Below the pieces are notes generated by a model, which worked only from the letters and a program-made list of their open reading frames with translations, was not told the origin of the DNA and made no database searches. From the IMG/VR virus record IMGVR_UViG_2563366805_000002: 30,982 bases of DNA; one strand, 5' to 3'. Positions 5,442-30,982 of this stretch are shown in pieces (position 1 is the stretch's first letter; the number at the start of each line of letters is the position of its first letter). Made by a program: the position numbers and the translations under genes. Origin of the DNA: a virus (Duplodnaviria; Heunggongvirae; Uroviricota; Caudoviricetes).

Positions 5442-5446
5442 GGGAT

Positions 5447-9881: not shown

Positions 9882-9896
9882 CGCTGACTCTCCGGA

Positions 9897-11615: not shown

Positions 11616-11626
11616 ACATCCCCCTT

Positions 11627-11980
11627 TCAGCGGCGACGGTTAACGGCAGGCGGTACGCCCCGCCCAAGCCAGAGATGACAGCTTCCGCCATCATCCGGCG
11701 AAATCCGGTCTATCCAGAAGTTTTCCTCACCGATGGTCAGCGTGTCGCCGCGCCGCAGCTGCCGCACATCATCAGTCCGGACAAACAGGGACGGGCTGGA
11801 GCCTTCAACGCGCACGCCCTGTCCGGCATAGCTGATATTTTCAGGGTCATCAAAAACACCACGTATCACAGCACCGGACTGCTCACCGGATGTCATGGTG
11901 GCTGACGTTCCCATGTACCCGCGTATCGTTTCATCGGCGCGGGCAATGGCAGCATCGAACAGGTTATCGAAATCAGCCAC
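11627..11980 (-). CDS. FII: Head-tail joining protein FII
   Basis: 117-aa ORF, same length and position as lambda FII. Confidence 0.85.
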   Translation of the reverse strand: MADFDNLFDAAIARADETIRGYMGTSATMTSGEQSGAVIRGVFDDPENISYAGQGVRVEGSSPSLFVRTDDVRQLRRGDTLTIGEENFWIDRISPDDGGSCHLWLGRGVPPAVNRRR

Positions 11981-11991
11981 AGCGCCTCCCG

Positions 11992-12387
11992 TTATTGCAT
12001 TCTGGCCAGGCCGCGCTCTGTCATTTCAGCTGACACACCGGCAGAGACACGGAACGCCGTTCCCGGCAGCACAAATGCCACAGCCTCATCCCGCGTGGCG
12101 TGAAGTGCATCAGTATGCAGCGTCACCAGTGCCACAACCGTGACCAGATCAGCCGTATCAGTCACGGTATCCGGCTGCGCTGATACCACCTCATTTTCAT
12201 GTCCGGTCAGCGCATTTTCCGGGCTGACAGATGTGTCCTGACCGGCAGCGTCATCCGTGTCATCAATCTCCTCTTCCAGCTCTGCCACACGGAGCACCAG
12301 TTCTTCTTTCGTCCCCGTCAGGCTGACATCACGGTTCAGTTGCTCACCCAGCACCTGAAGACGGGCAATCAGTTCATCTTTCGTCAT
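11992..12387 (-). CDS. FI: DNA packaging / head assembly protein FI
   Basis: Start moved to ATG at 12385-12387 (MTKDELIARLQ...), which has a GGAGGAG SD; the ORF-track start at 12426 is a longer upstream extension. Confidence 0.8.
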   Translation of the reverse strand: MTKDELIARLQVLGEQLNRDVSLTGTKEELVLRVAELEEEIDDTDDAAGQDTSVSPENALTGHENEVVSAQPDTVTDTADLVTVVALVTLHTDALHATRDEAVAFVLPGTAFRVSAGVSAEMTERGLARMQ

Positions 12388-12428
12388 GGACTCCTCCACA
12401 GAGAGAAAATGGCCCCGAAGGGCCATGA

Positions 12429-13454
12429 TTACGCCAGTTGTACGGACACGAACGCATCAGGGTCAGCCAGCAGCATCAGCGGTGCTGACTGAATCATGGT
12501 GAACTCACGCGCCGGATCGCCGGTGGTCACCCAGTTTTTCGGGTAGCGGGCAGAGGCGTTAATACCTTCGCGCTGTGCGTCCGCATCCTGAATGCAGCCA
12601 TAGGTGCGCAGACCGCGTGCCTGAGTGTTCCCCAGCACCATCGTGTTGTCCGGAAGGAAGTTCTTTTTGACGTCGTTTTCCACGTACTGTCCGGAATACA
12701 CGACGATCGCCGTATCGCCATACATCCCCTTATAGGACACCGCTTCGCCCAGGTCTTTTACCGCTGTCTCCAGCTCGGAATTAGAGCCGCGACGGGTATC
12801 CAGCTTCTCCCTGACGGCTTTGAAGGAACGGAACAGCGCCCAGCCTTTCGGATCAAACACGATGATATTCACCACTCCGCTGGCGTTCAGCGCATAGGCT
12901 TCGATATCGTCGGTCGGGTCATACGTGGACTTGTCACGCTTGCTCCACTCCGTACCACCGGACTGTGTGATGTTGTTCGCCGCACTGCGGCCCATATCCA
13001 CCTCAACCGGATCGAAGGCTTCACCGGTCATGGTGTATTTGCCCTTAAGCACAGCAGAAACTGCCTGCATCTCTTCGACCTGAGCAATGGCCAGCTCTTC
13101 GTCTCGCATGTTCTGCATGATGATGCGACGGCGGCGGTAAGCCGGGTCCGCCAGATTCTGCGGATCTTCATCCGGCAGGCGACGCAGGGTCATCTGCGGA
13201 TTCACCTCATGCTTCGGCTTGACATATCCCGGTGTAAATTCAGAGGTGGAGCCGCCACGGGAGCGGATAACCTCACCGGAAACAATCGGCGAAACGTACA
13301 GCGCCATGTTTACCAGTCCCGGAATTTGTGAGAGATAGACTTTCTCCGTGGTGAAGGGATAGCTCTCACGGAAAAAGAGACGCAGAAACAGCGGATCAAA
13401 CTTAAATTTCTTCTCATTTGCCGCCAGCAGCTGGGCGGTTGTGTACATCGACAT
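12429..13454 (-). CDS. E: Major capsid protein E
   Basis: Start at MSMYTTAQLLAANE (ATG 13452-13454); 341 aa, matching lambda E length and sequence as I recall it. Confidence 0.9.
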   Translation of the reverse strand: MSMYTTAQLLAANEKKFKFDPLFLRLFFRESYPFTTEKVYLSQIPGLVNMALYVSPIVSGEVIRSRGGSTSEFTPGYVKPKHEVNPQMTLRRLPDEDPQNLADPAYRRRRIIMQNMRDEELAIAQVEEMQAVSAVLKGKYTMTGEAFDPVEVDMGRSAANNITQSGGTEWSKRDKSTYDPTDDIEAYALNASGVVNIIVFDPKGWALFRSFKAVREKLDTRRGSNSELETAVKDLGEAVSYKGMYGDTAIVVYSGQYVENDVKKNFLPDNTMVLGNTQARGLRTYGCIQDADAQREGINASARYPKNWVTTGDPAREFTMIQSAPLMLLADPDAFVSVQLA

Positions 13455-13509
13455 AAAAAAATCCCATAAAAAAAGCCGCACAGGCGGCCTTTAGTGATGA
13501 AGGGTAAGG

Positions 13510-13842
13510 TTAAACGATGCTGATTGCCGTTCCGGCAAACGCGGTCCGTTTTTTCGTCTCGTCGCTGGCAGCCTCCGGCCAGAGCACATCCTCATAACGG
13601 AACGTGCCGGACTTGTAGAACATCAGTGTGGTGCTGGTCTGGTCAGCAGCAACCGCCAGAATGCCAACGGCAGCACCGTCGGTGGTGCCATCCCACGCAA
13701 CCAGCTTACGGGTGGAGGTGTCCAGCATCAGCGGGGTCATTGCAGGCGCTTTCGCACTCAATCCGCCGGGCGCGGTTGCGGTATGAGCCGGGTCACTGTT
13801 GCCCAGCGGCTGGTAATGGGTAAAGGTTTCTTTGCTCGTCAT
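13510..13842 (-). CDS. D: Capsid decoration protein D
   Basis: Start at [12 protein letters not shown]; 110 aa, matches lambda D. Confidence 0.9.
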
Positions 13843-13851
13843 AAACATCCC

Positions 13852-15151
13852 TTACACTGGTGTGTTCAGCAAATCGTTAACGGCATCAGATGCCGGGTTA
13901 CCTGCAGCCAGCGGTGCCGGTGCCCCCTGCATCAGACGATCCAGCGCAGTGTCACTGCGCGCCTGTGCACTCTGTGGTGCTGCGGCCAGAATGCGGCGGG
14001 CCGTTTCCACGGTCATACCGGGGGTTTCTGCCAGCACGCGGGCCTGTTCTTCGCGTCCGTGAGCCTCCTCACAGTTGAGGATCCCCATAATGCGGCTGTT
14101 TTCTGCCGCAACCGCAGCGGTGATCTGCGCGTTCACGTCCGGCTGCGCCGCGCTGGCGTTTTCGCCCTCCGTCGCTGGCACCACGTCAGTAACGTCAGCC
14201 TGCGAAGCAGTGGCTGAAACAGTTGTTGATTGAGTCTCTTTGGTCATTCGCCCTCCTGAGAGACGGGATTTACGTGCATCCAGTGCATCACGCATAACGG
14301 TGATCGCATCGGTGCTGTTGACAAGTTCATCAGCCAGTCCGGCATCAATGGCCTCCTGACCGCTGTACACTGCAGCCTCGGTATCCAGCACAGCCTGCAC
14401 GGACAGGCCGGTATATGCCGACACCTTCTGCGCAAACATCCGGCGGGTTGCATCCATCCGGGACTGCAGTGTCTCCCGGACGTCATCCGGAAGATGGCTG
14501 TAGGGGTTGCCATCCACCTTATGGCTGCCGCTGTAAATCAGCGTGATTTCCACGCCCTGTTTCTCCAGCGCAGCGCCGTAATTACTGTGAGCCATCATGA
14601 CGCCGATGGAGCCTGTCCGTGCGGTCTGCGTGACCAGACGTCGGGAGGCGGCACTGGCAAGCAGCTGACCTGCACTGCAGTTCATGTCGTTGGCCAGCGC
14701 CCATACCGGCTTTATGTCACGCACACGGGCGATGATGTCAGCGCAGTCAAATGCTCCCGCCACCATTCCGCCCGGTGTGTCCATATCGAGCAGAATGCCG
14801 TCCACCATCGGGTCGCTGGCAGCCTGTTGCAGACGGGCGATAATGCCGTTGTAACCGGTCATCCCCGAGTACGGCTGCAGCGCCCGCGTCCGGCTGACCA
14901 GCGTGCCGGACACCGGCAGCACGGCGATGCCGTTCATGACCTGATAACTGCGGGCCTGTCGTGGTCCGTCATCATCACCGGATAATGCCAGCGTCGCGGG
15001 TGCCTCCTGGGCAGTCAGGCTGTCGCCGGACACCGCATCCGTCAGGCGGCTGATCCCAAGCTGGCCTGCAAGCGCACAAAAGAAAACCCGCGCATAGGCG
15101 GGTTCAAGCATCAGCGGCTCATTAAAGGCCATGCTGGCAATATGCGGGAGA

Positions 15152-15171
<20 letters not shown>
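13852..15171 (-). CDS. C: Capsid assembly protease C (S49 peptidase family; the Nu3 scaffold is an in-frame C-terminal product)
   Basis: GTG start at 15169-15171 (VTAELRNLPHIASMAF...) preceded by an AGGAGA SD; 439 aa as in lambda C; overlaps the B 3' end by 20 nt as in lambda. The ORF-track N-terminal extension is rejected. Confidence 0.85.
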
Positions 15172-18852
<3,681 letters not shown>

Positions 18853-18878
<26 letters not shown>

Positions 18879-19398
18879 TCAGCAACCCCGGTATCAGTTC
18901 ATCCAGCGCGGCTGCTTTGTTCATGGCTTTGATGATATCCCGTTTCAGGAAATCAACATGTCGGTTTTCCAGTTCCGGAAAACGCCGCTGCACCGACAGG
19001 GGGATCCCGTCGAGAATACTGGCAATTTCACCTGCGATCCGCGACAGCACGAAAGTACAGAATGCGGTTTCCACCACTTCAGCGGAGTCTCTGGCATTCT
19101 TCAGTTCCTGTGCGTCGGCCTGCGCACGCGTAAGTCGATGGCGTTCGTACTCAATAGTCCCTGGCTGGAGATCTGCCTCGCTGGCCTGCCGCAGTTCTTC
19201 AACTTCCCGGCGCAGCTTTTCGTTCTCAATTTCAGCATCCCTTTCGGCATACCATCTTATAACGGCGGCAGAGTCATAAAGCACCTCATTACCCTTGCCA
19301 CCGCCTCGCAGAACGGGCATTCCCTGTTCCTGCCAGTTCTGAATGGTACGGATACTCGCACCGAAAATGTCAGCCAGCTGCTTTTTGTTGACTTCCAT
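18853..19398 (-). CDS. Nu1: Terminase small subunit Nu1
   Basis: 181-aa ORF beginning MEVNKKQLADIFGASIRTIQNWQEQGMPV (winged-HTH DNA-binding N-terminus), matching lambda Nu1. Confidence 0.9.
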
Positions 19399-19419
19399 TG
19401 TTCATTCCACGGCCAAAAA

Positions 19420-19620
19420 CAGAGAAAGGAAACGACAGAGGCCCAAAAGCTCGTTTTCAGCACCTGTCGTTTCCTTTCTTTTCAGGGGGTATTTTAAATA
19501 AAAACATTAAGTTACAACGAAGAAGAACGGAAACGCCTTAAACCGGAAAATTTTCATAAATAGCGAAAACCCGCGAGGTCGCCGCCCCGTAACCTGTCGG
19601 ATCGCCGGAAAGGACCCGCA
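19420..19620 (-). other. cos: cos region (cosB with cosN and flanking cosQ-side sequence), lambda-type
   Basis: The sequence between the Nu1 start and 19620 matches the lambda left-end/right-end junction as I recall it (complement of ...GGTTACGGGGCGGCGACCTCGCGGGTTTTCGCTATTTATGAAAATTTTCCGG...). Confidence 0.8.
19576..19587 (-). other. cosN: cosN 12-nt cohesive-end sequence (complement of GGGCGGCGACCT)
   Basis: Forward-strand aggtcgccgccc at 19576-19587 is the exact reverse complement of the lambda cohesive end. Confidence 0.85.
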
Positions 19621-19786
19621 AAATGATAATAATTATCATCTGCATGTCACAACGTGCATCTACGCCATCAAACCACGTCAAATAATCAATTATGACGCAG
19701 ATATCGTATTAATTGATCTGCATCAACTTAACGTAAAAACAACTTCAGACAATACAAATCAGCGACACTGAATACGGGACAACCTC

Positions 19787-20020
19787 ATGTCAACGAAGAA
19801 CAGAACCCGCAGAACAACAACCCGCAACATCCGCTTTCCTAACCAAATGATTGAACAAATTAACATCGCTCTTGAGCAAAAAGGGTCCGGGAATTTCTCA
19901 GCCTGGGTCATTGAAGCCTGCCGCCGGAGACTGTGCTCAGAAAAAAGAGTTTCTTCTGAAGCAAACAAAGAAAAGAGTGACATTACTGAATTGCTCAGAA
20001 AACAGGTCAGACCAGATTGA
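19787..20020 (+). CDS. ynfO: YnfO-like small prophage protein (77 aa)
   Basis: 77-aa ORF just beyond cos; size and context match Qin-prophage ynfO as I recall it. Function unknown. Confidence 0.55.
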   Translation: MSTKNRTRRTTTRNIRFPNQMIEQINIALEQKGSGNFSAWVIEACRRRLCSEKRVSSEANKEKSDITELLRKQVRPD

Positions 20021-20062
20021 AGCAATTTAGATAATCGTGCAGACTACGCCCCCTCATATCAC

Positions 20063-20488
20063 ATGGAAGGTTTATCTATGGATCAGGTAGTCATTTTTAA
20101 ACAAATATTTGATAAAGTTCGAAACGATTTAAACTATCAATGGTTTTATTCTGAGCTAAAACGTCACAATGTCTCACATTACATTTACTATTTAGCCACA
20201 GAGAATGTTCATATTGTATTAAAAAATGATAATACAGTGTTATTAAAGGGCCTAAAAAACATTGTGTCTGTCAAATTTTCAAAGGATAGGCATCTTATAG
20301 AAACGACCTCTAATAAGCTGAAATCCAGAGAGATCACATTTCAGGAATACAGAAGAAACCTTGCTAAAGCAGGAGTTTTTCGGTGGGTTACAAATATCCA
20401 CGAACAAAAAAGATATTACTATACCTTTGATAATTCATTACTATTTACTGAAAGCATCCAGAAAACTACACAGATCTTACCACGCTAA
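20063..20488 (+). CDS. ydfO: YdfO-like DUF1398 protein
   Basis: 141-aa ORF; the true start may be the Met at residue 6 ([11 protein letters not shown]...). Follows ynfO as in Qin and the lambda right end. Confidence 0.6.
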
Positions 20489-20639
20489 ACCATAACGTCC
20501 GGCTTCTCTCACTCCTGAGCCGGACTGCATTGGTTTAATAAAAACCATCAACAATTGTGATTTAGATATTCGGAACCATTCAAATATAACAAAACCCCGT
20601 AAAAACGAGGTTTATGGATAAATTTTATTATTGAATACA

Positions 20640-20812
20640 TCAGATTAAATTAATCTTGACATCATAGCTTTCAAGACCCGTCATTTTTTCCCGTGCGGTA
20701 AACTGAATACTGGTAACTTCTTTCCCGGTCTTTTTCTTAAGTTCAATAATTTTTTTGTTATATATTCAGAAATATCTGCTTCTGCTTTTGTTTTTAAGTT
20801 TTCAATATTCAT
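20640..20812 (-). pseudogene. gnsB: gnsB/gnsA-like gene with a 1-nt frameshift in a homopolymer
   Basis: Minus-strand ATG at 20810-20812 gives MNIENLKTKAEADISEYITKK, then the frame breaks in the T7 run at 20750-20756. Adding one base restores ...IIELKKKTGKEVTSIQFTAREKMTGLESYDVKINLI, stop at 20640-20642. The 173-nt span is one short of a multiple of three. Confidence 0.55.
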
Positions 20813-20983
20813 CATTTCCTCTTTTAGTCTGTTATGACTTTCCAGTTACACAGTAAGTCGATTATATGGTGCAAACGTGTAAAAGATAAGATGAAACATC
20901 GCAATAATCAACATACGATAGTCTAAATTTTACACAAACAGACAAAGAGAATTTTCCTGAATTATCAATGCAATAGCATCAAA

Positions 20984-21214
20984 TCAACTCAAGAGCCTTA
21001 TTGCTGCTTCCAGAATTTCTTCTGAAGTAACATGTCGATCCGCGGCTACATAAATGACTTTATGATCTCCGGTCAGAGATGGAAACCCTGCGGCCATTAC
21101 AGTAAGGTGTGTTTTTTCGCCATTTGGATATTCACGCATGATGGTGTTAACTCCAGTCATCGCTGGCACTACCACTGCTGGTTCAGAGTTAAAAAAAACT
21201 ATGATTTTTTTCAT
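20984..21214 (-). CDS. Hypothetical small protein (about 76 aa from MKKIIVFFNSEP...)
   Basis: ORF-track ORF 20984..21256; the internal ATG at 21212-21214 is the more plausible start. No recognised family. Confidence 0.3.
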   Translation of the reverse strand: MKKIIVFFNSEPAVVVPAMTGVNTIMREYPNGEKTHLTVMAAGFPSLTGDHKVIYVAADRHVTSEEILEAAIRLLS

Positions 21215-21485
21215 GATGTTACCGTAGTATGTGAGTATCCATCGAATAGACACCAAGCCAAAAAGCTCCCGAAGGAGCCTTCATTTTCACTTTTTTAAAT
21301 CCAACGACAGACGGCTGGCATTTAAGTATTGTGAAATATTATCAAATGTAATCATCATTGATTTACAAAAGATACATTTTGCCCCGAAAGGATTCATGTC
21401 AGAAACATCAAAAGATGATGTTCTATACTGGGAACCATGACAACACGGGCATCTAAAGTGAATATGGTTTGTAATATTGTCTACC

Positions 21486-21698
21486 TCAAAGCGCCACTAC
21501 ATGAACAGCGGCAGGACCTTTAGGTCCGTTCTCAATACCAAATTCAACTTCCTGATTCTCAGTTAATGTTTTGAAATCGTTGCTCTGAATTGCTGAGAAA
21601 TGGACAAACACATCTTTGCTGCCATCTTTCGGCGTGATGAAACCAAAACCTTTTTCAGGGTTAAACCATTTTACTAAACCAGTCATTTTGTTAGACAT
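21486..21698 (-). CDS. cspI: Cold shock protein CspI-like (CspA family)
   Basis: 70-aa [41 protein letters not shown] with RNP1/RNP2 motifs; matches E. coli CspI as I recall it. Confidence 0.85.
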
Positions 21699-22048
21699 AA
21701 TTATTACCTTTTGAAGAAATTAGCCCTTGGGCAGAATGGTCCGAAAAAAAATATCAGAGAGAAAAACCAACAAGGAAATCTCAAGAGGTACAAATAATAA
21801 AATTATAACAATGACTGCTTCAGATAAATTTGTAACAAACCAGAACACCATTAACGCATGATTAACCACCCATAGCAAGGATTACTTTTGTAAAGAAAAA
21901 CACAGCAATGAAAGAATAGCTTTATTTATTAATAAAACGTGTCATTCTGATTAAGACCTTTTATCTTACCCTTAAGATTTCAGGAATTTTGGCTCATGGA
22001 AGAGTCCTTTTTATTTAAATTTTACATTCCGCGGGTAATGACTCCAAC

Positions 22049-22552
22049 TTATTGGTAGTGTTTTATGTTCAGATAATGCCCGATGACTTTGTCATGCAGC
22101 TCCACCGATTTTGAGAACGACAGTGACTTCCTGCCCAGCCTTGCCAGATGCTGCCTCAGATTCAGGTTATGCCGCTCAATGCGCTGCGTATATCGCTTGC
22201 TGATAACGTGCAGTTCTCCCTTCAGGCGTGATTCATAAAGCGGCCAGCCATCCGTCATCCATACCACGACCTCAAAGGCCGACAGCAGGCCCAGAAGACG
22301 CTCCAGCGTGGCCAGCGTGCGTTCACCGAATACGTGCGCAACAACCGTCCTCCGTATCCTGTCATACGCGTAAAACAGCCAGCGCTGGCGCGATTTAGCC
22401 CCGACATAGCCCCACTGTTCGTCCATTTCCGCGCAGACGATGACGTCACTGCCCGGCTGTATGCGCGAGGTTACCGACTGCGGCCTGAGTTTTTTAAATG
22501 GCGGAAAATCGTGTTGAGGCCAACGCCCATAATGCGGGCAGTTGCCCGGCAT
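22049..22552 (-). CDS. insB: IS1 InsB (normally expressed as the InsAB' transposase by a -1 frameshift)
   Basis: 167-aa ORF matching IS1 InsB; the A6C frameshift motif is present (complement of gtttttt at 22489-22495). Confidence 0.85.
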
Positions 22553-22746
22553 CCAACGCCATTCATGGCCATATCAATGATTTTCTGGTGCGTACCGGGT
22601 TGAGAAGCGGCGTAAGTGAACTGCAGTTGCCATGTTTTACGGCAGTGAGAGCAGAGATAGCGCTGATGTCCGGCGGTGCTTTTGCCGTTACGCACCACCC
22701 CGTCAGTAGCTGAACAGGAGGGACAGCTGATAGAAACAGAAGCCAC
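22471..22746 (-). CDS. insA: IS1 InsA
   Basis: 91-aa [46 protein letters not shown] (zinc finger, HTH); GTG start. Confidence 0.85.
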
Positions 22747-22796
22747 TGGAGCACCTCAAAAACACCATCATACACTAAATCAGTAAGTTGGCAGCA

Positions 22797-23072
22797 TCAC
22801 CGGATTTTCAATCTTAAAGGAGTACTGATGCTGCAGATAAGACTCAACTTTTCTGACAATTTTTCTGCTACTTCCAGGAAGACTTGCCGGACGCTCATTC
22901 TGGCTGCTGCCTCATAAAACTCCAGCGTAGCTCCTTCAACACGGTCCATGGCGACATCCAGGCCAAAAATTTCACCGTCAAAGCGTTCTTTGTCCTGTAA
23001 GGCTACAGTTACCGTAACTTTATTCTCAAAATTACGGACTCCTTTCACAACCAGTTCATAGCCTTGAGTCAT
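22797..23072 (-). pseudogene. ydfR: YdfR-like lysis-region protein, 3' end replaced by the IS1 terminus
   Basis: 91-aa ORF directly downstream of the holin; its stop codon (22797-22799) lies inside the IS1 terminal repeat. Assignment to YdfR is by size and context only. Confidence 0.4.
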
Positions 23073-23076
23073 TGGA

Positions 23077-23292
23077 TTATTCTCCTCTCGCAGCCTTACG
23101 CCTGTCTTCTTTAATCTTGAAATAAAGATTTGTCAGATACGTCAGCAGGCCAAAAACCAGGCTACCCAGCACACCGATTGCAGCCCACTGTGACGGAGTT
23201 ACTTTATCGAGTAACTGCAATGCCCAGAAACCAGCATTACCCGCCGATGTGCCATAGGCAACACCTGTTGTTAACTTATCCATTGATTTCAT
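23077..23292 (-). CDS. essQ: Phage holin (class II-like, EssQ/EssD-like)
   Basis: 71 aa from [30 protein letters not shown]... with two predicted TM segments and a charged C-terminus ([13 protein letters not shown]); SD GGTGAGGA upstream. Confidence 0.75.
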
Positions 23293-23511
23293 ATCCTCAC
23301 CCCGATGTACACGGATGGTGCAATATGTTTGAAAAGATCGGAGTCTACGGGGTAGTTTTGACAGCACACGCTGTTCTCAACGGCGCTAAAGAAACATACA
23401 CATTAAAAATGTGAGTAATTATTTTGAAAGAAAGTCATATATAAAATAATAATACGAGAAATGTTTTCATATTTAGTGTACTGTATACGGCCATTTATAC
23501 AGGAAAAGCCT

Positions 23512-23682
23512 ATGTCAGAACGTAAAGACTCAAAATCACGCCGTAATTATCTCGTTAAATGTTCCTGCCCAAACTGCACCCAAGAGTCAGAACACAGTTT
23601 TTCAAGAGTACAAAAAGGTGCCCTTTTGATCTGCCCTCATTGCAACAAAGTATTCCAGACAAATCTTAAAGCTGTAGCCTGA
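23512..23682 (+). CDS. ynfU: Small zinc-ribbon protein (YnfU-like, 56 aa)
   Basis: MSERKDSKSRRNYLVKCSCPNCTQ...LICPHCNKVF carries CxCPxC and CPHC motifs; SD AGGAAA 7 nt upstream of the ATG at 23512. Confidence 0.5.
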   Translation: MSERKDSKSRRNYLVKCSCPNCTQESEHSFSRVQKGALLICPHCNKVFQTNLKAVA

Positions 23683-23744
23683 TTGATTTTATTAGTAACA
23701 AGTATTTTTTATATTTTAATAATATATTTAAAGCAGATAATAAA

Positions 23745-23764
23745 AAACCCGCCTGAGCGGGTTT
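23745..23764. terminator. Bidirectional rho-independent terminator hairpin between ynfU-like and cspB
   Basis: AAACCCGC-ctga-GCGGGTTT stem-loop flanked by an A-run (5') and T-rich sequence (3'), so it carries a U-tract in both orientations. Confidence 0.5.
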
Positions 23765-24045
23765 GAGATTGTGGTGCTTTTTGTGGGAGTCATCCACTTA
23801 CGCACTTTGTTTTGCCATGCCAGCAGTTAGCTTCTGCTGTAAAACTATTCATGCAGCAAACCTGCACTTCACCACAATGGTTAGCATACTTTTCCTGATT
23901 AAGATTTTGCCAAATATGCTGGCCATTGTTTCATGTATTGGACCTCCTTAATTTTTATTAAAGAAATCCAATATTCACTACTCTGTCCGTATCTCTACTC
24001 AGGCATCAGCCTTCTTCGTTATCGTATACAGACGAGCGATGAATT

Positions 24046-24261
24046 TTAATCAGTAATGATGACATTTGCTGCTGCAGGACCTTTAGCACCACTCTCTATA
24101 GAGAAGGTAACCTTTTGACCTTCAAATAAGGTTCGATAATTATCATTCTGAATCGCAGAAAAATGCACAAACACATCTTTACTACCATCAACAGGAGAAA
24201 TAAAGCCGAAACCTTTATCAGCGTTAAACCATTTTACTAAACCAGTCATTTTATTTGACAT
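24046..24261 (-). CDS. cspB: Cold shock protein CspB-like
   Basis: 71-aa [56 protein letters not shown]...; matches E. coli CspB as I recall it. Confidence 0.85.
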
Positions 24262-24561
24262 TCTACATTCCTTAACTTGAGCCTTTCGGCATAAATGGTT
24301 TGCATAACAGAAACGACTTCGTACTTAATTGGAGAGACTCAAAGAAGGAATAAGTGAATAACACCTGAAATGAGAACTGCTTTAGTAAACTACTTCGTAT
24401 ATCGTCTGTTCTTCAAACCGACGCAATCATTAACGCATAGTTGAACATATGAAGCAATGTTTATTTTAGACATCCAGCCATCTTCAACCCCATCAAAAAA
24501 CTATAGCTTTCTTCAGGAACGTGTGTATAGTGCGCCAAGTTATCAGTATTAAGGAATTTTT

Positions 24562-24774
24562 TTGTCCCGTAAAATGACAGGAATTGTCAAAACCTTTGAC
24601 GGCAAAAGCGGCAAGGGTCTTATCACCCCATCCGATGGTCGTATCGATGTCCAGCTTCATGTTTCAGCGCTCAATCTCCGCGATGCAGAAGAAATTACCA
24701 CCGGATTACGCGTGGAATTTTGCCGGATAAATGGTCTGCGTGGCCCTTCAGCTGCCAATGTTTACCTTTCATGA
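24562..24774 (+). CDS. cspF: Cold shock protein CspF-like (divergent CspA-family member)
   Basis: 70-aa [44 protein letters not shown]...; divergent from cspB across a 300-bp intergenic region. Confidence 0.8.
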
Positions 24775-25066
24775 GCTATATTAAAGCTTTAATTTCAGGC
24801 CCCATCGGATCACACATGGAGAGTTTTTATGAATAACCCCGTCTGTCTTGATGACTGGTTGATTGGCTTTAAAAGCTTATGCTGTACTTTGGCCGTAATA
24901 GCTCTGCTAATAATATAATAAGCAGACTCATTGTGTTTAGGGACATTGTACTGGAAGAAAACATTTTAAACATCAGGCAAATAACCAAGTCACCAGCTAA
25001 ATAATAAGTTAACAGACATGAGTCCCGGGATGAGATTCAACATTACCATTGCCCCATTTAAAGCAC

Positions 25067-25090
25067 AAAACCCGCTCATCAGCGGGTTTT
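25067..25090. terminator. Terminator hairpin downstream of Q (candidate tR'-like terminator of the short late-promoter transcript)
   Basis: AAAACCCGCT-catc-AGCGGGTTTT perfect 10-bp stem, T-rich on both sides; about 105 nt downstream of the Q stop on the minus strand. Confidence 0.4.
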
Positions 25091-25195
25091 CTACTTTTTC
25101 TTAACGTCGGGTATACAAAGCCCATCGTTGAAAAAATTTTATCCATATTTTTTGAAAAATGCAAACATCATGTCGCCATCTTCAGCAAAAATCAT

Positions 25196-25948
25196 TTATC
25201 TCGTCACCTTCCTCAATTGCGCTTCCGCGTATGCTTCTTCCTGCCAGCACTTTGTTACCAGTTTACCAATGACGTCCGCATACCCCTTATACCACTGATA
25301 ATCGGTCAGGTCTGGTACCAGCTTCTGGACATGACGTCGTGCCAGCGTGGTCGGTAAACGACTAAACCGGTTTCCATTACAACGCCCACAAATCTTATAT
25401 ACCGGTACGCCATGAAACCGGGTTCTTTTTTCATCCAGAACAATCCCTTTACCCTTACACCCTCTGCACGCTGTGCTGGCTTCGCCCTTACCATGGCAAT
25501 GCTGACATAGTTCCTTCACCCATTCTTCCTTGATTACAGATTCCCCGCGTCTGTAGTGTTTCACCACTTCGCGCAATACATTATAAAATCCCGTACCTGA
25601 ACAATGCTCACAGCGAGCCTTACTTGCCGCAGACCTGGAGTAATCAGCAAAGGCAAAACTCACGAGGTAAGGAATAATCTGTAACCGGATTTCTTCACTC
25701 AATTTGTTCAATGTCGGGTTATCCAGTGCCATCGCGTAATTTAGCAGGCCTTCAATCGCAAACTGAGGGTCCTGAACACCAACTTTTGCCAGAAATAAGG
25801 CCAACCCAAGTGGTGCTTTCGACTGCACCATCCCCTGCGCTGCCATTACATCCGTAATTGTTAAACAACCGGTGCCTGTCGCTGGAGCGTCATCGCTCAA
25901 TTTTGGAGATTTTGGGGAGTAATATTTTGGTAAGGCTTCAAGGTTCAT
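25196..25948 (-). CDS. quuQ: Late-gene antitermination protein Q (QuuQ-like, zinc-finger Q family)
   Basis: 250 aa from MNLEALPKYYSPKSPKLSDD...; C-terminal CEHCSGTG...CQHCHGKG...CRGCKGKG...CGRCNG cysteine clusters; located upstream of the holin. Confidence 0.8.
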   Translation of the reverse strand: MNLEALPKYYSPKSPKLSDDAPATGTGCLTITDVMAAQGMVQSKAPLGLALFLAKVGVQDPQFAIEGLLNYAMALDNPTLNKLSEEIRLQIIPYLVSFAFADYSRSAASKARCEHCSGTGFYNVLREVVKHYRRGESVIKEEWVKELCQHCHGKGEASTACRGCKGKGIVLDEKRTRFHGVPVYKICGRCNGNRFSRLPTTLARRHVQKLVPDLTDYQWYKGYADVIGKLVTKCWQEEAYAEAQLRKVTR

Positions 25949-25961
25949 GCTCGTTCTCCAC

Positions 25962-27010
25962 TTACGCCAGTACGCCAATTGCCAGCGCGCGATCGATAAA
26001 ACGAAATATCAGCTCCAGTTGGGAGCCATACTTCTCTTCAAATGCCACTGTATCCGTATGCAGCTCGTTGTGATGCTTTCTGCACAAAGGCAACACAAAG
26101 AGATCATGTGCTTTTGTTCCCATTCCGCCCTGCCCGTGACCAATCAGATGATGCGGATCGTCGGCTGGCATACCGCAGCAAGCATACGGCTGTGTCTTAA
26201 CCCAGCGTGTGTATTTCTCCTTAACCCACCGGTGACGTTTAGGCAGCTTCATGAAAGATTCCGGAGACTCTGGATCAACGGTGATGCTTACCACCGTCTT
26301 TTCCTGTGATGGGTTTTGTTGCTGGTGGGCGTGAGGCAACGGTGCAAGATTTTTTGTGCGCTGTTTCAATATGCTGGTGGCGGTCTGCTCTCCCGGTACG
26401 ATGTCGCTTTCGCGGTACACCGAGCAGATTTTTTCCGCTGGTAATCCCAGCGAGCGACGTAATACCGCTTCCGGTAGCGCGTCCGCCAGCTGATTGCGGA
26501 CCGCCCACCAGGAAATTCAGCCAGAGATAATTCACGCTCCTGCGTACCGCTTATTGCGTGACCGATGACGTCAATCATCCATGCTGACAGGTTTTGATGA
26601 GCAAGTTGCTCGAGTGATTCGGATGTCTGGTCACGCAGCTGGTTGTCGCAGTGCCAGCACAACACCATTGCGCCGGTACCATATCGGTGAATAACGGTTT
26701 CGCTGTGATGATAATCGCCGTGTGGCCACTGGCAGGATTTAATATGGCGCAACAGCCAGTCAGACAATGCACCAGCACCACCAGCAGCACGAATTACCCG
26801 TGTGTTACTGAAAAACGGCAGCAATGTTTTGTCTTCCACCAGCGGCTGGCGAACGGCAGGAACGACCCCGGACGGCAGATTACGCATGCTTTTCGGTTCC
26901 GGCTCCACCAGTACCCGGGTATTGTGGAATACCGGCATGGATTCACGGCCCGGCTTAACGACCACCAGCCCGAGTTCCGGTACCAGAACAGGTCGAAGTA
27001 ATACCCGCAC
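25962..27010 (-). pseudogene. ydfU: YdfU-like (DUF968) gene split by a 1-nt frameshift
   Basis: Two overlapping minus-strand ORFs (26366..27010 and 25962..26420) in different frames; the combined span of 1049 nt is one short of 1050 (349 codons plus stop), matching the K-12 YdfU length as I recall it. A T6 run at 26429-26434 lies in the overlap zone. Confidence 0.5.
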
Positions 27011-27011
27011 G

Positions 27012-27290
27012 TTACCTCCAGAGGCGTTGCTGGAATGTACGGGACGGACGCGGTGGGCGTTCGGAGTAAGGCAATCTGACTGAGATTATCCAGTGACGGT
27101 AGTCGAGGCTAAGGGCTTTTTTAACCTCGTATCCGCGCCTGCGGTAACACTGAATTATCCATTCAGCCTGCTCTTCAGTGCATGGTGGATGCTGGAACCA
27201 GTCCGATTTGAATGCATGAAAACGCCGTCCGCACCTGCTGGCAAAGACGGCAGAATCATCAGAATTGTGTAATTTGGTATCGTGCGCCAT
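27012..27290 (-). CDS. rem: Rem-like small prophage protein
   Basis: 92 aa from MAHDTKLHNSDDSAVFASRCGRRFHAF...; position between ydfU and hokD as in Qin. Confidence 0.45.
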   Translation of the reverse strand: MAHDTKLHNSDDSAVFASRCGRRFHAFKSDWFQHPPCTEEQAEWIIQCYRRRGYEVKKALSLDYRHWIISVRLPYSERPPRPSRTFQQRLWR

Positions 27291-27662
27291 CGGTTGTCTC
27301 TGCTGGCGCAGCAGGTGCCAGTTGTTCAGGCTGGCGTATAAAGTATAAATAAACTGGTTCCAGTGTAAAGCCCCTACATTAATGGAATAAAAGTCAAACA
27401 ACAGATTGTTGGGATAAACACAACGCTTATTATTAAAAGCGATTAGATAAATTAAATTTTAATGTTATGCAATTTTACCAGATCACCATAACATCTCGTT
27501 TGAAACCACCAAAACAACAACCATATCAATATTGATTATGTTAAAGTGAGTAAATATGGAAAACAACAAATCTGCACATTACGCTCCTTTTTTATCTGTG
27601 ATACTTTTTGTTTTATGCTGTGTGTGGGCATTATTTTTATAAAAATATTTACAGATAAAATA

Positions 27663-27680
27663 AACCCGCCGAAGCGGGTT
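27663..27680 (-). terminator. Rho-independent terminator downstream of hokD
   Basis: AACCCGC-cgaa-GCGGGTT hairpin; on the minus strand it is followed by TTTATTTTAT. Confidence 0.5.
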
Positions 27681-27748
27681 AAGTGCGGGTGCATTGAGGA
27701 TGCCTGACACATCAGAGGTGGCGAGGGATTTCTCCCTCGCCTGGTCTC

Positions 27749-27904
27749 TTACTCCTCAGGTTCGTAAGCTGTGAAGACAGCGACCTCCGTCTGGCCGGTT
27801 CGGATTCGTACCTCGCAGAGGTCTTTCCTCGTTACCAGTGCCGTCACTATGACGGTTAAACAGATGACGATCAGGGCGATTAACATCGCCTTTTGCTGCT
27901 TCAT
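27749..27904 (-). CDS. hokD: Hok-family type I toxin (HokD/RelF-like)
   Basis: 51 aa MKQQKAMLIALIVICLTVIVTALVTRKDLCEVRIRTGQTEVAVFTAYEPEE; SD AAGGAGAAG about 6 nt upstream. The ORF track shows an in-frame 19-codon upstream extension. Confidence 0.85.
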   Translation of the reverse strand: MKQQKAMLIALIVICLTVIVTALVTRKDLCEVRIRTGQTEVAVFTAYEPEE

Positions 27905-28519
27905 AGCCTGCTTCTCCTTGCCTTTCGGCACGTAAGAGGCTAACCTACATGTGTCTAGCATGAAATTGGCCTCAGATTAATGTTAAGCGTCTTGCAGGAC
28001 GCGTAATGTCAACTGGGGCTTTTCTCTATCTGCCTTTGGTGTTCATGCCTGAGGCAGATAGCCTCAAGCACCCGCAGCAATTCTACTTAACTCACGTCAC
28101 CTCGCCAATATAAAATCAATCAGAAAGGCGATCCGTAAGAACAACAGCAAGACAATAAATTGCCATTACAGCCGCAATAGCTAGCGCACATTTGAGAACC
28201 AGCACGACAACCTCCTGTATTGGACGTACACCAGTCCTGATAAATATGAGGCTGTCTCATCATTGATTCAATATAACTATTGGGTATAGTTTCTGTGATT
28301 TTGTTCTGTAGAAATGGAACACAACAACCAGTCTCCACCAGCACTTCTTTAAATACGCCAAGTCCGACGCAAGCTAACCTTCTAGTCCGCTTTGAGCGAA
28401 CTGTGGAAGCTCGCAAATGTTGTTACATCTGATGAAGGCATTACTCAAAGGAGGGGATAGTAGTCAACGTGGAGCAGGCCATGTTAGTATTTTTATACAA
28501 TTCGACTAAGGGAAAAACA

Positions 28520-28708
28520 ATGAGGCTTTACATAATAGGAAATGGATTTGACATGCGTCATGGCTTACCAACAGGATACAAGCACTTTAAGTCGTATGTA
28601 GAAAAAAATGACCAAGATCTATATGACGCGATAGAAGAATACATTCCTGCTGGGGACGAGTGGAATGAGTTAGAAAATGCTTTAGGTGAAATTGATTATG
28701 AGCTTTGA
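28520..28708 (+). pseudogene. AbiH-like abortive-infection gene, N-terminal 62 codons only (cut by IS3)
   Basis: MRLYIIGNGFDMRHGLPTGYKHFKSYVEKN... carries the N-terminal IIGNGFD...HGL motif I associate with the AbiH family (Pfam PF14253); the stop codon TGA at 28706-28708 is the first three bases of the IS3 terminal repeat. Confidence 0.5.
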
Positions 28709-29150
28709 TCCTACCCACGTAATATGGACACAGGCCTAAGCGAGGTTCTTGTTTTCAAATTGTTCCGGACTGAGGCCGCCACACCAACTGTGCCGCCGCC
28801 ACCGATTGTAATCACATTCGATATAATTAAACACCGTTGCCCGCATTATTTCCCGGCTGATAAAGTGTTCTCCATGGATACATTCCACTTTCAGCGAATG
28901 AAAGAAGCTTTCCACGCAGGCATTATCGTAGCAGCAACCTTTTGCGCTCATACTTCCACGCAGATTATGCCGCTTCAGTTGCGCCTGATAATCTGCTGAA
29001 CAGTACTGGCCTCCACGGTCCGTGTGAACGATAACGTTCCGGGGCCTCTTACGCCGCCACAGCGCCATCTGCAGGGCATCGCAGGCCAGTTGCGCCGTCA
29101 TGCGTGGCGACATTGACCAGCCAATAACGGCACGTGACCACAGGTCAATG
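28706..29150 (-). mobile_element. IS3: IS3 fragment (terminal ~445 bp including the right inverted repeat)
   Basis: TGATCCTACCCACGTAATATGGACACAGGCCTAAGCGAGG terminal sequence at 28706; encodes the InsF C-terminus ...[13 protein letters not shown]; IS3 homology stops abruptly at 29150. Confidence 0.85.
28736..29150 (-). pseudogene. insF: IS3 transposase InsF (orfB), C-terminal portion only
   Basis: Residues ...[49 protein letters not shown]... including the DDE-domain region; the N-terminal part is replaced by the IS629-like element. Confidence 0.8.
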
Positions 29151-29202
29151 TGAACCGCCCCGGTAATCCTGGAGACTACACTCTTTGAGAGAGGTAACCA
29201 GG

Positions 29203-29526
29203 ATGACAAAACATAACCGATTTCCCCCTGAAGTTCGTCAACGCGCTATTCGTATGGTTCTGGAAAACCAGAATACCTACAACTCACAATGGGCCGCTAT
29301 CTGCTCCATTGCCCCTAAGATCGGCTGCACTCCCGAGACATTGCGTATCTGGATCCGTCAGCAGGAGCCCGTTGATGATGAGCAGAATGCGCTGACTGCC
29401 AGCGAACGCCAGCGTCTGAAAGAACTGGAGCGGGAAGTCCGCGAGCTGCGCCGCAGCAATGATATTCTGCGTCAGGCTTCAGCGTATTTTGCCCAGGCGG
29501 AGCTCGACCGCCACTGGAAAAAATAA
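29203..29526 (+). CDS. IS3-family transposase OrfA (HTH)
   Basis: [54 protein letters not shown]... with a leucine-zipper-like C-terminus; related to IS629 OrfA. Confidence 0.8.
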
Positions 29527-29940
29527 TGCCGCTTCTGGAAAATCTGAGCGGTGAACACGGGGTCGGGCCAGTCTGTCATGAGCTGGATATTGCTCCGTCA
29601 ACGTACTACTGGCATCAGCAACGCCGGAAGTGTCCTGAACGACGCAGTAGTCGGGATAAACGCGATGCCGTGCTGATACCTGAGATACAGCGCGTATACG
29701 AAGAAAACTACAGCGTTTACGGTGTGCGTAAGGTCTGGCGACAGCTAAAACGTGAAGGTGTCGGCGTTGCCCGCTGCACCATTGAGCGCCTGATGAAAGC
29801 CCTGCAGCTACGTGGGGTGACACGCGGCAAAAGTGTCAGAACCACCCGCAGCAACAAAGCCGAAACACCGCAGGATCGGGTGAACCGGCAGTTCGTGGCT
29901 GAACGGCCCGATAGTCTTTGGGTGGCCGATTTTACCTACG
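29526..29940 (+). CDS. IS3-family transposase OrfB, 5' portion (interrupted after ...LWVADFTY by the intron)
   Basis: The frame reads ...RPDSLWVADFTY and then enters intron sequence at 29941; the ORF-track residues after this (GVPGVQGEHGC...) are intron-encoded read-through. Confidence 0.7.
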
Positions 29941-30982
29941 GTGTGCCCGGAGTTCAGGGTGAGCATGGATGCTCAAATGAACCACGAGTCTGTCTGGAAT
30001 ATTGAACCGGTAACTCACGATGAGAAACCCAACAATCCCGTCGGGTGTGACGGCGGAGAACCTGAGCGGCAGTGACCTGCGGCATGCCCGCAGGGTGATG
30101 TAACCCGCTGACAACGGGGATTGAGGCGAGATCACTAAGCCGAGATGATCCTCAAGGTTAAGTACTGAAAGGCTGAAGAACATGAACCCGTTAATCCGCC
30201 TCTGTGGGTTGAAAACGTCACCACGGCCTACGTGATCTGACAGGCCGTGCAGGAGGAACTGGCAGTGATACGTAAGCACTGCCGGTCGAAGGTTTTTTGA
30301 CATGTATGCGAAACACCGGGGCAGCAGCGTCTATCACGCTTGCGTTGCTGACCTCTGCCAACTTGCGGCAAGCAAGGATAAAGAGTGCGACGGGCAGCCT
30401 CCTCAGTATGCCTGAGTCCAGACAGGTAAACCGGGGAAGGTCAGCGACGGATGTTAAGGGGGCATGGCTCCGATGACGCGCTGGCTGGCGGAGCTTCCGT
30501 AGTAGTCCGCGATGGGGAAAGCCCATTACATGGCGAAGGGAAGCAGTTTGAATGTGTTTGCGACGTGAATTAACTGACCTAACGAGGTGAAGACCTTTGA
30601 TAATCAGCGAAATGCAACGCAAGCTTGCCACATGGGCAGTCACCGATCCGTCCCTACGGATTCAACGGCTGCTGCGTCTGATAACACAACCAGAATGGCT
30701 GGCTGAAGCGGCGCGGATCACGCTTTCATCAAAGGGGGCCCATACCCCCGGCGTTGATGGCGTGAACAAAACAATGCTACAGGCCAGACTGGCTGTTGAG
30801 CTGCAAATCCTCAGGGATGAATTACTCTCAGGCCACTACCAGCCCTTGCCCGCCAGACGGGTTTACATCCCTAAAAGCAACGGCAAACTGCGACCACTGG
30901 GTATCCCCGCGTTGCGGGATCGTATTGTTCAGCGGGCCATGCTGATGGCGATGGAGCCGATATGGGAGAGTGATTTTCATAC
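29941..30982 (+). mobile_element. Group II intron, 5' part (domains I-IV and start of the intron-encoded protein), continues beyond the window
   Basis: Begins GTGTGCCCGGAG... (GUGYG consensus, similar to the Ll.LtrB 5' end GTGCGCCCAGAT); about 670 nt of structured non-coding sequence, then an RT-type ORF. Confidence 0.7.
30612..30982 (+). CDS. Group II intron-encoded reverse transcriptase/maturase, N-terminal 123 codons (partial)
   Basis: MQRKLATWAVTDPSLRIQRLLRLI...HTPGVDGV...YIPKSNGKLRPLGIPALRDRIVQRAMLMAMEPIWESDFH has the RT domain 0/1 signatures (TPGVDG, RPLGIP, RDRIVQ). An alternative TTG start at 30597 has better spacing to GAGGTGA. Absent from the ORF track because there is no stop in the window. 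Confidence 0.8.
   Translation, partial: MQRKLATWAVTDPSLRIQRLLRLITQPEWLAEAARITLSSKGAHTPGVDGVNKTMLQARLAVELQILRDELLSGHYQPLPARRVYIPKSNGKLRPLGIPALRDRIVQRAMLMAMEPIWESDFH

Follow-up and report, generated by a model that had tools for sequence, protein, structure and literature searches.

Introduction

The group II intron E.c.I4 of Escherichia coli is a member of bacterial class A, whose proteins have no D/En region (PMC3552965). It resides in transposase genes of the IS3 family, with IS629, IS911, ISEc16 and ISEc31 as reported targets that it enters at specific positions (Leclercq & Cordaux 2012, PMC3522654). A single E.c.I4 fragment is on record for strain K-12 MG1655, and chimeras of ISEc31 and IS629 are mentioned in the supplement of the same study, without sequences (PMC3522654).

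A pile-up of mobile elements that includes this intron is found in the CP4-6 prophage of K-12, at the locus perR-insN-insI1-ykfC-insH1, where IS911 is split by both IS30 and an E.c.I4 fragment, the latter truncated by IS5. Group II introns begin with GUGYG and end with AY, and those without an endonuclease retrohome by reverse splicing with priming at replication forks. Among the host elements, IS629 has isoforms that include IS3411 and IS1203; isoforms of one IS are conventionally more than 95% identical in nucleotides.

Here, we have analysed the end of a stretch of viral DNA of 30,982 nucleotides (the window). A sequence-only reading had described this end as a four-level nested insertion, in which an abiH-like gene is cut by IS3, the IS3 by an IS629-like element, and the latter by a group II intron. 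Our best account, to which we assign as a whole a probability of about 0.88, is that mobile elements have piled up at the end of the window, which lies at the inner edge of an E. coli prophage of the lambdoid, Qin-like type. The stack of elements is real and can be reconstructed, but it is ordinary biology, already known and present in public genomes.

Results

The closest complete genome is that of E. coli C 236-04A (locus L001), which is collinear with all 30,982 bases of the window at 99.88-99.94% identity. The window stops at nt 1042 of the intron, and the closing halves of the layers were read in relatives rather than in the source genome, which probably continues downstream as its closest relative does. 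The three junctions proposed at 28706, 29150/29151 and 29941 could be read directly in the sequence and are all real at these coordinates (Table 1).

Table 1. Features at the end of the window (positions are those of the window)
Feature	Position	Strand	Remarks
abiH 5' fragment, Qin-like prophage	28481..28705	+	75 of 302 codons; Pfam PF14253; 100% identity to the start of the intact gene
IS3, right-hand 445 bp (nt 814-1258)	28706..29150	-	terminal repeat and C-terminal part of orfB; identified by sequence, with translation matching rve/rve_2/rve_3 (Pfam)
ISx left target duplication ATG, in IS3 orfB	29148..29150	.	second copy across the element in L001
ISx nt 1-790 (1305 bp when complete)	29151..29940	+	left terminal repeat, orfA, ALIL pseudoknot, orfB codons 1-138
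ISx orfA	29203-29526		
ALIL frameshift pseudoknot	29481-29597		Rfam RF01497, 93.3 bits
Group II intron E.c.I4, nt 1-1042 of 2270	29941..30982	+	sense orientation in ISx orfB; cut by the window end
Intron-encoded RT/maturase, N-terminal 123 codons (502 aa when complete)	30612..30982	+	runs off the window end

The AbiH-like ORF, which starts at ATG 28481 in the PGAP annotation or at an internal ATG at 28521, ends with ...GAG CTT TGA. Its stop codon TGA (28706-28708) is supplied by IS3, whose right terminal repeat TGATCCTACCCACGTAATATGG opens with these three bases; that the ORF stops on the terminal repeat had been noticed before and is seen directly in the sequence. The 75-aa fragment is labelled 'AbiH family protein' (WP_000959906.1) in RefSeq. 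On the AbiH profile of Pfam (PF14253) it covers positions 1-68 of 260 only (69.5 bits) and so falls short of a full-length domain match, whereas the intact allele of strain 503025, with whose start the fragment is identical, encodes 302 aa and covers profile positions 1-258 (233 bits). The window thus carries a remnant of abiH, a predicted abortive-infection gene of phage defence, and no functional abiH gene.

The IS3 that adjoins this remnant is present in L001 as three pieces that sum to exactly 1258 bp, the canonical length of IS3. Both ends are present, with terminal inverted repeats that begin with TGATC (the right repeat lies at window position 28706), and orfA and orfB are intact; the middle piece is labelled 'IS3-like element IS3 family transposase' by PGAP. 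Inside this copy lies an IS30 of 1221 bp flanked by GC...GC. To count four levels is therefore to undercount the stack, as the same IS3 copy holds IS30 and, in the closest genome, the IS629-like element holds a member of the IS110 family.

The outer flanks of IS3 in L001 are CTT on the abiH side and GTA on the rspA side, so that no 3-bp target duplication is found there, which fits a deletion or recombination junction and has no bearing on the identity of the IS3. The far IS3 end adjoins an rspA that lacks its last 189 bp. When the left and right flanks of the L001 stack are mapped to the locus of strain 503025 (L009), where abiH (302 aa) is intact and the left arm of the prophage complete, they fall at positions 1004 and 14977. 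By this comparison, about 13-14 kb is missing at the IS3: the rest of abiH, the immunity, replication and integrase genes of the prophage, and rspB.

Had the stack arisen as four clean nested insertions, the remainder of abiH would lie beyond the IS3 left end, and peeling off the layers would restore an intact gene. The three inner layers do close in this way in the closest genomes, where the 3' parts of the intron, of the IS629-like element and of IS3 follow one another in nested order, and to this extent the four-level description stands. The outermost layer, however, is not a recoverable insertion. In all the junction loci that we examined, the IS3 left end is followed by truncated rspA or by a further rearrangement, never by abiH, and a junction between the IS3 left end and the 3' part of abiH was sought in 5426 complete E. 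coli genomes and found in none. Of the 3-bp duplications that the sequence-only reading had proposed to look for, ATG is present around the IS629-like element, but CTT and GTA around IS3 are no duplication. We consider clean nesting very improbable. Since the far end of IS3 adjoins truncated rspA or a rearrangement, and since its flanks are not a duplication, abiH marks the left boundary of a deletion bounded by IS3. None of the 5426 genomes has IS3 simply inserted at this site in abiH or at that in rspA. The sole full-coverage match in that search proved to be another IS3 insertion, which lies upstream of abiH.

The homology to IS3 ends at 29150, and the left end of an IS629-type element, TGAACCGCCCCGG, begins at 29151, as the sequence-only reading had it. 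This element, ISx, has imperfect terminal inverted repeats (the right one is TGAACCGCTCCGG as reverse complement). Over nt 1-790, the part in the window has 100% identity to copies of 1305 bp that stand free elsewhere, for example that at positions 4001-5305 of locus L003, a copy in a Tn7-like tnsD with an ACT duplication on its flanks. In L001, the ATG duplication lies directly beside ISx, at 9749-9751 and 14701-14703, and the element is laid out as nt 1-790, the intron of 2270 bp, nt 791-958, the IS110-family element and nt 957-1305. In relatives that are free of ISx, there is a single ATG and IS3 is contiguous across the insertion site.

Whether this stretch is a distinct IS or part of a composite element had been set as a check beforehand. 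The free copies with their own 3-bp duplications elsewhere settle it in favour of a distinct IS, and the composite reading was rejected. The transposase matches the IS3-family model NF033516 of NCBIfam at 304.5 bits (cut-off 160) and HTH_Tnp_1, HTH_21 and rve of Pfam. With its own repeats, 3-bp duplications at independent sites, orfA and orfB with a -1 frameshift signal and an rve transposase, ISx is predicted to be an autonomous element.

Like IS629, ISx has two ORFs with a -1 frameshift pseudoknot, a 3-bp duplication and a similar length (1305 versus 1310 bp), and the first 13 bases of the left ends of the two are the same. Unlike what would be expected of an isoform, it is only 74% identical in nucleotides and 75% in OrfB to the IS629 copy reconstructed from L004; with identity this low, ISx is a separate IS and not an isoform of IS629. 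That the element is IS629 itself was thus rejected, and 'IS629-like' is the correct description. ISx occurs in only 34 of the 5426 complete E. coli genomes (megablast). Searched for a specific name, PGAP, PLSDB and the protein-cluster names give only 'IS3 family transposase'.

The orfB of ISx is interrupted at 29941 by the 5' end of a group II intron, followed by an RT ORF, in agreement with the sequence-only reading. The intron begins there at its nt 1 with GTGTGCCCGG..., that is with GUGUG (GTGTG in DNA), and in L001 it ends with ...CTCTAC. The L001 copy measures 2270 bp and is inserted exactly between nt 790 and 791 of ISx, without duplication, so that the exons are contiguous once it is removed. 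The window copy is 99.1% identical to that of L001, which in turn is 99.66% identical over 1764 nt to the E.c.I4 fragment of K-12 ykfC. Roughly every second complete E. coli genome has this intron of 2270 bp.

Beyond the window end, domains V and VI were recognized in L001 at 12725-12811, the last 87 nt of the intron (Rfam RF00029, 64.9 bits against a gathering threshold of 40); domains I-IV had no Rfam match, whether the window was scanned at gathering thresholds or L001 at E ≤ 0.01. As there are no differences between the window and L001 after 30422, the segment 30612-30982 matches the start of ltrA WP_001189123.1. Taken alone, the 123-aa fragment has no match in Pfam. The full protein matches RVT_1 (120 bits) and GIIM (41.5 bits) of Pfam, with no match to HNH or another endonuclease domain, and TIGR04416 at 341 bits (cut-off 300).

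The insertion point lies one base past the W-V-A-D-F-T-Y codons of ISx orfB. In IS629, IS911 and IS3, the intron uses the homologous position, one base past the codons of a W-x-x-D-x-T-Y motif; in locus L014, E.c.I4 is seen directly inside IS3 itself. A candidate EBS1, UGUGGGU (intron nt 263-269), would pair with the exons of ISx, IS629 and IS911 if G-U pairs are allowed, but has two mismatches to the IS3 exon. For EBS2, our EBS/IBS search gave no convincing candidate. By its ends, its precise insertion, its domains V and VI, its encoded protein and its sequence identity, the intron is E.c.I4, a bacterial class A intron without an endonuclease domain, at its usual homing site in IS3-family orfB. 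The earlier remark that homing of introns into IS elements is established biology is borne out, the site being the known IS-homing site of E.c.I4.

Of the 5426 complete E. coli genomes, 49 have the abiH/IS3 junction and 10 have the full stack. That the stack might be an assembly artefact, or a chimeric or composite element, comes to mind because a genome has numerous copies of IS3, IS30 and E.c.I4, and repeats of this kind are well known to cause misassembly. The 10 genomes, however, were finished independently, differ in serotype, host and country, and have identical junctions; the 75-aa junction protein is found in 696 blocks of the assembly-collection index; and the target duplications and element lengths are exact. 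Misassembly was rejected on these grounds, and we give an artefact or a chimera practically no chance. Nor is the stack due to chance, for in the closest genome the elements can be put together again from their pieces at precisely their canonical lengths, and their target duplications are exact.

Relatives differ downstream, where the IS110-family element is present in L001 and absent in L006, and where the right end of ISx adjoins truncated ynfE in L007. The further insertions, of IS30 and of an IS110-family element, lie downstream.

When stack copies of different strains are compared, the flanking DNA, IS3 and ISx are identical over more than 12 kb, and every difference lies in a mosaic tract of the intron, with 68 of them crowded into its nt 20-908. 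The window intron is a mosaic of two haplotypes, with type b at nt 20-114 and type a from nt 202. Both haplotypes are co-resident in strains that carry the stack.

Discussion

The order of the insertions can be read because related genomes retain an ISx-free precursor, abiH'-IS3::IS30-rspA', which is found at 100% identity in L011, L015, L016 and L017. In the proposed course of events, IS3 would first have come to lie in abiH codon 76, with deletion of the DNA as far as a point 189 bp inside rspA; intramolecular transposition, or recombination between this IS3 and another copy, could have brought the deletion about. This step would have cost the remainder of abiH, rspB and a set of prophage genes, namely those for immunity and replication, dicB, and the exonuclease, excisionase and integrase genes. 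IS30 would then have entered IS3 at nt 336/337, duplicating 2 bp (GC), and the 1305-bp ISx would have transposed into IS3 orfB at nt 814-816 with the 3-bp ATG duplication. E.c.I4 may have entered ISx orfB after that, in the sense orientation, by a retrohoming that would have to be endonuclease-less; alternatively, it may have arrived already inside ISx. Lineage-specific events would have followed: the insertion of the IS110-family element into ISx, an IS5 insertion, more deletions, and recombination between intron variants. As IS30 and the deletion are both older than the ISx insertion, the stack cannot be read strictly from the inside out.

The alternative at the fourth step, that an intron-bearing ISx of 3575 bp transposed into IS3 as one unit and that the two inner levels are a single event, deserves attention. 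A sense-oriented intron could be spliced from the transposase mRNA, and an IS that bears one could still make transposase. An ISx nest without the intron was found in none of the 5426 complete genomes, and ISx copies that end at nt 790, the intron site, just like intron-bearing ones, are found elsewhere, among other places in a Tn7-like element and on plasmids of E. coli and Klebsiella. Against this, two strains that share one Tn7-like ISx copy differ in that it has the intron in only one of them, and the nests of different strains have different intron haplotypes but identical flanks, which turnover of the intron in place explains more easily. We therefore regard joint arrival as the less probable, if still serious, course, and prefer separate entry of the intron into ISx. 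The empty and filled Tn7-like alleles show that the intron probably invades resident ISx copies in these lineages.

Whether the intron layer of the stack was itself rewritten in place is a question on which we are evenly divided. If it was, and if the patchwork stems from frequent gene conversion among E.c.I4 copies scattered over the genome, or from recurrent loss of the intron and renewed invasion of its homing site, this fixed, datable locus could be used as a natural clock by which to set recombination between introns against point mutation in E. coli. The locus also illustrates clearly how intron haplotypes form a mosaic at a fixed site.

The abiH, IS3 and ISx copies of the stack are predicted to be dead, and the prophage would be able neither to excise nor to replicate. 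The intron in relatives retains an intact RT ORF and ribozyme core.

The insertion in the window is like those of E.c.I4 in IS629, IS911 and IS3 in its sense orientation, its precision, its lack of a duplication and its position relative to the conserved codons. The RT protein WP_001189123.1 is the same as in the IS629-borne copy and has RT and maturase domains only. Unlike the published copies, that in the window is a mosaic of two intron haplotypes. Its host is neither IS629 nor IS911. Unless ISx is ISEc16 or ISEc31, the published host list of E.c.I4 gains an IS3-family element, and it gains the direct insertion into IS3 in L014. The CP4-6 locus of K-12 is likewise a stack in a cryptic prophage, in which an IS3-family element carries IS30 and the same intron and a further IS truncates the pile. 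It differs from the stack of the window in that the host is IS911, the intron is truncated at nt 1764, and there is neither a second IS3-family layer nor a remnant of a defence gene.

The stack matters mainly for annotation and for reading the history of strains, and leaves our understanding of IS elements and group II introns unchanged. A single IS3-bounded deletion cost a Qin-like prophage its abiH and its immunity/replication/integration module, and the host rspB and the end of rspA, and related genomes hold enough intermediate states to order the later insertions. In these respects, the locus resembles the adjacent deletions mediated by IS elements in Qin/Rac-type remnants: one end of the IS lies at its original target and the other beside distant DNA, no duplication is found, and the integrase and immunity arm of the prophage is lost. 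There is nothing unusual in this. In strain M9682-C1, a second, independent IS3-bounded deletion begins in the same abiH gene.

Prophage setting of the window

The whole window (30,982 bases) is collinear with the chromosome of E. coli O125ac:H10 strain C 236-04A (NZ_CP109924.1), with identities of 99.94% for bases 1-20074 and 99.88% for bases 19401-30982. The last 2.5 kb were read directly, and the locus of this strain (L001; window coordinate = L001 coordinate + 19399) and other relatives were used for sequence past the window end. The region is a Qin-like lambdoid prophage, in which the structural genes (terminase to tail protein J) are followed by ydfO, gnsB, cspI, IS1, the holin gene, cspB, cspF, the Q antiterminator, a frameshifted ydfU, hokD/sok and, last, the abiH fragment. 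The morphogenesis block (window 1-19400, minus strand; nohA/terminase to tail protein J and lom) looks complete. Integrase, excisionase, repressor and replication genes are missing because of an IS3-bounded deletion, and as a result the prophage cannot excise, though its structural half is intact.

An IS1 copy of 768 bp (window 22034-22801) has cspI on one side and a DUF1327 pseudogene on the other within the lysis module, and strains ECONIH4 and 2273-PO3 have IS1-bounded rearrangements at the corresponding place. The DUF968 gene ydfU (window 25962-27010, minus strand) is split by a frameshift into overlapping ORFs (25962-26420 and 26366-27010); relatives have it annotated as a pseudogene, and the allele of strain 503025 is intact.

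The inner layers of the stack

The sequence-only reading had described an abiH-like gene cut by IS3, which is interrupted by an IS629-like element (ISx), itself interrupted by a group II intron. Direct reading showed its coordinates to be correct: the abiH frame stops on the IS3 right terminal repeat (TGA at 28706-28708, the first bases of TGATCCTACCCACGTAATATGGACACAGGCCTAAGCGAGG), IS3 gives way to an IS629-type left end after 29150, and ISx orfB is broken at 29941 by an intron 5' end followed by an RT ORF. The 75-aa product matches positions 1-68 of the 260-position Pfam AbiH profile (69.5 bits), whereas an intact allele of another strain (302 aa) matches positions 1-258 (233 bits).

Features at the end of the window, and codons at E.c.I4 intron sites (a slash marks the insertion point)
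Feature	Position	Strand	Sequence or evidence
AbiH-like ORF	28481 (PGAP start; internal ATG 28521) to '...GAG CTT TGA'		N-terminus MLVFLYNSTKGKTMRLYIIGNGFD...; direct reading
IS3 transposase, C-terminal 137 residues	28706-29150	minus	rve, rve_2, rve_3 (Pfam)
ISx left end	from 29151		TGAACCGCCCCGGTAATCCTGGAGAC...; abrupt change from IS3 sequence (direct reading)
ISx orfA	29203-29526		
ALIL frameshift-stimulating pseudoknot	29481-29597		Rfam RF01497, 93.3 bits; start of ISx orfB after
Intron RT ORF	starts 30612, continues past window end		
Intron site in ISx			TAC G/TC
Intron site in IS629			TAC G/TC
Intron site in IS911			TAT A/
Intron site in IS3			TAC T/TA

Strain C 236-04A also holds a free ISx copy of 1305 bp within a Tn7-like tnsD gene (L003 4001-5305), which runs from TGAACCGCCCCGG... 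to ...CCGGAGCGGTTCA and has an ACT duplication on either side. Nucleotides 1-790 of ISx, window 29151-29940, are 100% identical to it. In L001 the pieces of ISx follow in order (nt 1-790, the 2270-bp intron, 791-958, an IS110-family element of ∼1370 bp, 957-1305), and ATG...ATG flanks the complete element within IS3. The remaining IS3 is split farther along by an IS30 that measures exactly 1221 bp and has GC...GC flanks (L001 15182-16402). When the three IS3 pieces are joined and one copy of each duplication is removed, exactly 1258 bp are recovered; both terminal repeats are present, and neither orfA nor orfB is interrupted. These exact closures rule out chance, a composite element and misassembly. 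In L001 the inner layers close downstream in the nested order that had been expected, with the 3-bp duplication for ISx, and the IS629-like element is a distinct IS, as proposed. The IS110-family element in ISx orfB (L001 12980-14349) has an ambiguous 'CA' at its junction and is lineage-specific.

ISx shares 74% nucleotide identity with IS629 (75% in OrfB; IS629 copy reconstructed from strain AR_0151), and the first 13 bases of their left ends are identical. It is rare, being found by megablast in 34 of 5426 complete E. coli genomes, on chromosomes and plasmids, and on a few plasmids of other Enterobacterales. Every source names it 'IS3 family transposase', nothing more specific.

The outer layer is a deletion junction

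The outermost layer did not follow the four-level nesting. In L001 the IS3 left end (…GGGTAAGATCA) adjoins GTATTCCTGG..., a minus-strand rspA without its last 189 bp, and not the anticipated rest of abiH; the outer flanks of IS3 are CTT and GTA, so that the 3-bp duplication looked for around IS3 itself is not there. Neither junction of a simple insertion, IS3 left end to abiH codon 76 or rspA 3' end to IS3 right end, had a match in the 5426 complete genomes. In strain 503025, an intact abiH is followed by a 463-aa hypothetical gene, replication and immunity genes, ydfA, dicB, ydfD, an exonuclease gene, xis, int, rspB and rspA. The stack flanks map to positions 1004 and 14977 of this locus, a gap of 13,972 bp (∼12.7 kb without that strain's own IS insertion). 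With non-matching flanks and no simple-insertion junctions, abiH is the edge of an IS3-bounded deletion; either intramolecular transposition or recombination of two IS3 copies could have produced it. The original reading of the sequence is correct, with its outermost layer better described as a deletion junction.

Independent IS3 insertions in this small region were observed in two other strains, with the same orientation in both. In M9682-C1 (L008 5926-7684) IS3 cuts abiH at about codon 199 and the deletion reaches the exonuclease gene; in DETEC-E601 (L021 2893-5301) an intact IS3 lies between hokD and an intact abiH. The abiH region may be an IS3 hot spot, or there may be repeated selection against it.

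All components and behaviors of the stack are already established: IS3-family elements transpose with 3-bp and IS30 with 2-bp duplications, IS-bounded deletions ground prophages, and E.c.I4 homes into IS3-family orfB. An analogous pile is found in prophage CP4-6 of E. coli K-12, where IS911 is split by IS30 and an E.c.I4 fragment that is truncated by IS5. RefSeq genomes already contain this exact locus, where it is annotated as fragments of pseudogenes. The biological interest of the finding is low.

Distribution and order of events

In the index of a public assembly collection, 696 blocks contain the 75-aa junction protein; among 5426 complete genomes, 49 have the abiH/IS3 junction. Four of these (L011, L015, L016, L017) have abiH'-IS3::IS30-rspA' at 100% identity with IS3 unbroken at the ISx site, so the deletion and IS30 preceded ISx. 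The full stack through the intron junction is present in 10 complete genomes. ECONIH4 (L006) has it without the IS110-family element, and L019 has an additional IS5, 29 bp within the IS3 right end. In 2273-PO3 (L007 13285-13329) the ISx right end adjoins a truncated ynfE; this is a second-generation deletion, in which the IS3 remainder, IS30, rspA' and ynfA-ynfD were lost.

As no intron-free stack was found among the complete E. coli genomes searched (n=5426), ISx may have brought the intron along on arrival in IS3. However, the Tn7-resident ISx (Tn7-like tniQ/tnsD gene, identical ACT flanks) lacks the intron in C 236-04A and contains it in 0H26. This empty/filled pair of E.c.I4 alleles (L003 4001-5305 and L022 4501-8075) shows resident ISx copies to be targets of intron invasion in these lineages.

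The intron and its homing site

ISx reads '...TGG GTG GCC GAT TTT ACC TAC G' up to 29940 and is then replaced by GTGTGCCCGGAGTTC.... The insertion is precise and without duplication, ...TTTTACCTACG and TCAGCACCTGG... being uninterrupted in the free copy. The intron is E.c.I4, with 99.66% identity to the K-12 ykfC fragment across 1764 nt. The protein it encodes (502 aa) contains RVT_1 and GIIM domains, passes TIGR04416 and has no endonuclease domain, in agreement with the class A assignment in PMC3552965. The Rfam domain V/VI model matches the final 87 nt of the intron (64.9 bits; L001, beyond the window end). Sequence related to the intron occurs in 2671 of the 5426 complete E. coli genomes.

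MG1655 is listed with one E.c.I4 fragment, and E.c.I4 is reported to insert at specific positions in IS629, IS911, ISEc16 and ISEc31 (PMC3522654); IS3 is absent from that list. In L014 (GCA_964043915.1, 10708-12977), E.c.I4 lies directly in the same IS3 copy next to abiH', at IS3 nt 776/777; it is oriented like IS3 orfB, and the ISx site is 37 bp away. This codon position is homologous to the site in ISx, IS629 and IS911, with the intron one base past the W-x-x-D-x-T-Y codons in each of the four hosts. A search for the exon-binding sequences of the intron gave no confident assignment.

Mosaicism of the intron

L001 and L006 show zero differences in 6.2 kb left of the intron, and likewise in a comparable right-hand stretch, versus 69 differences that all fall within intron nt 20-1091. 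Alignment of seven copies gave two haplotypes, which differ at 68 sites in nt 20-908 plus one site beyond. The window intron is of type b at nt 20-114 (nt 26 excepted) and of type a from nt 202 on, except that nt 482 has the type b allele and nt 354 a private change. Within the stack, the window and its closest genome show nine differences, all of them in the 5' part of the intron at 29960-30422 (intron nt 20-482). The window intron is a mosaic of two E.c.I4 haplotypes. Stack-bearing genomes contain both haplotypes. The simplest account is that intron copies at dispersed sites recombined; separate invasions of an ancestor with an empty site may instead be responsible.

The sole non-intron difference from relatives, at position 28010, falls within the sok antisense RNA match (Rfam RF01794, 119.5 bits); the toxin gene hokD and sok lie directly upstream of the abiH fragment (window 27749-28073). 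The model of the cspA thermoregulator 5' UTR is matched over its full length twice (window 21459-21844 and 24030-24422; 115 and 159 bits), and these matches cover the prophage cold-shock genes cspI and cspB.
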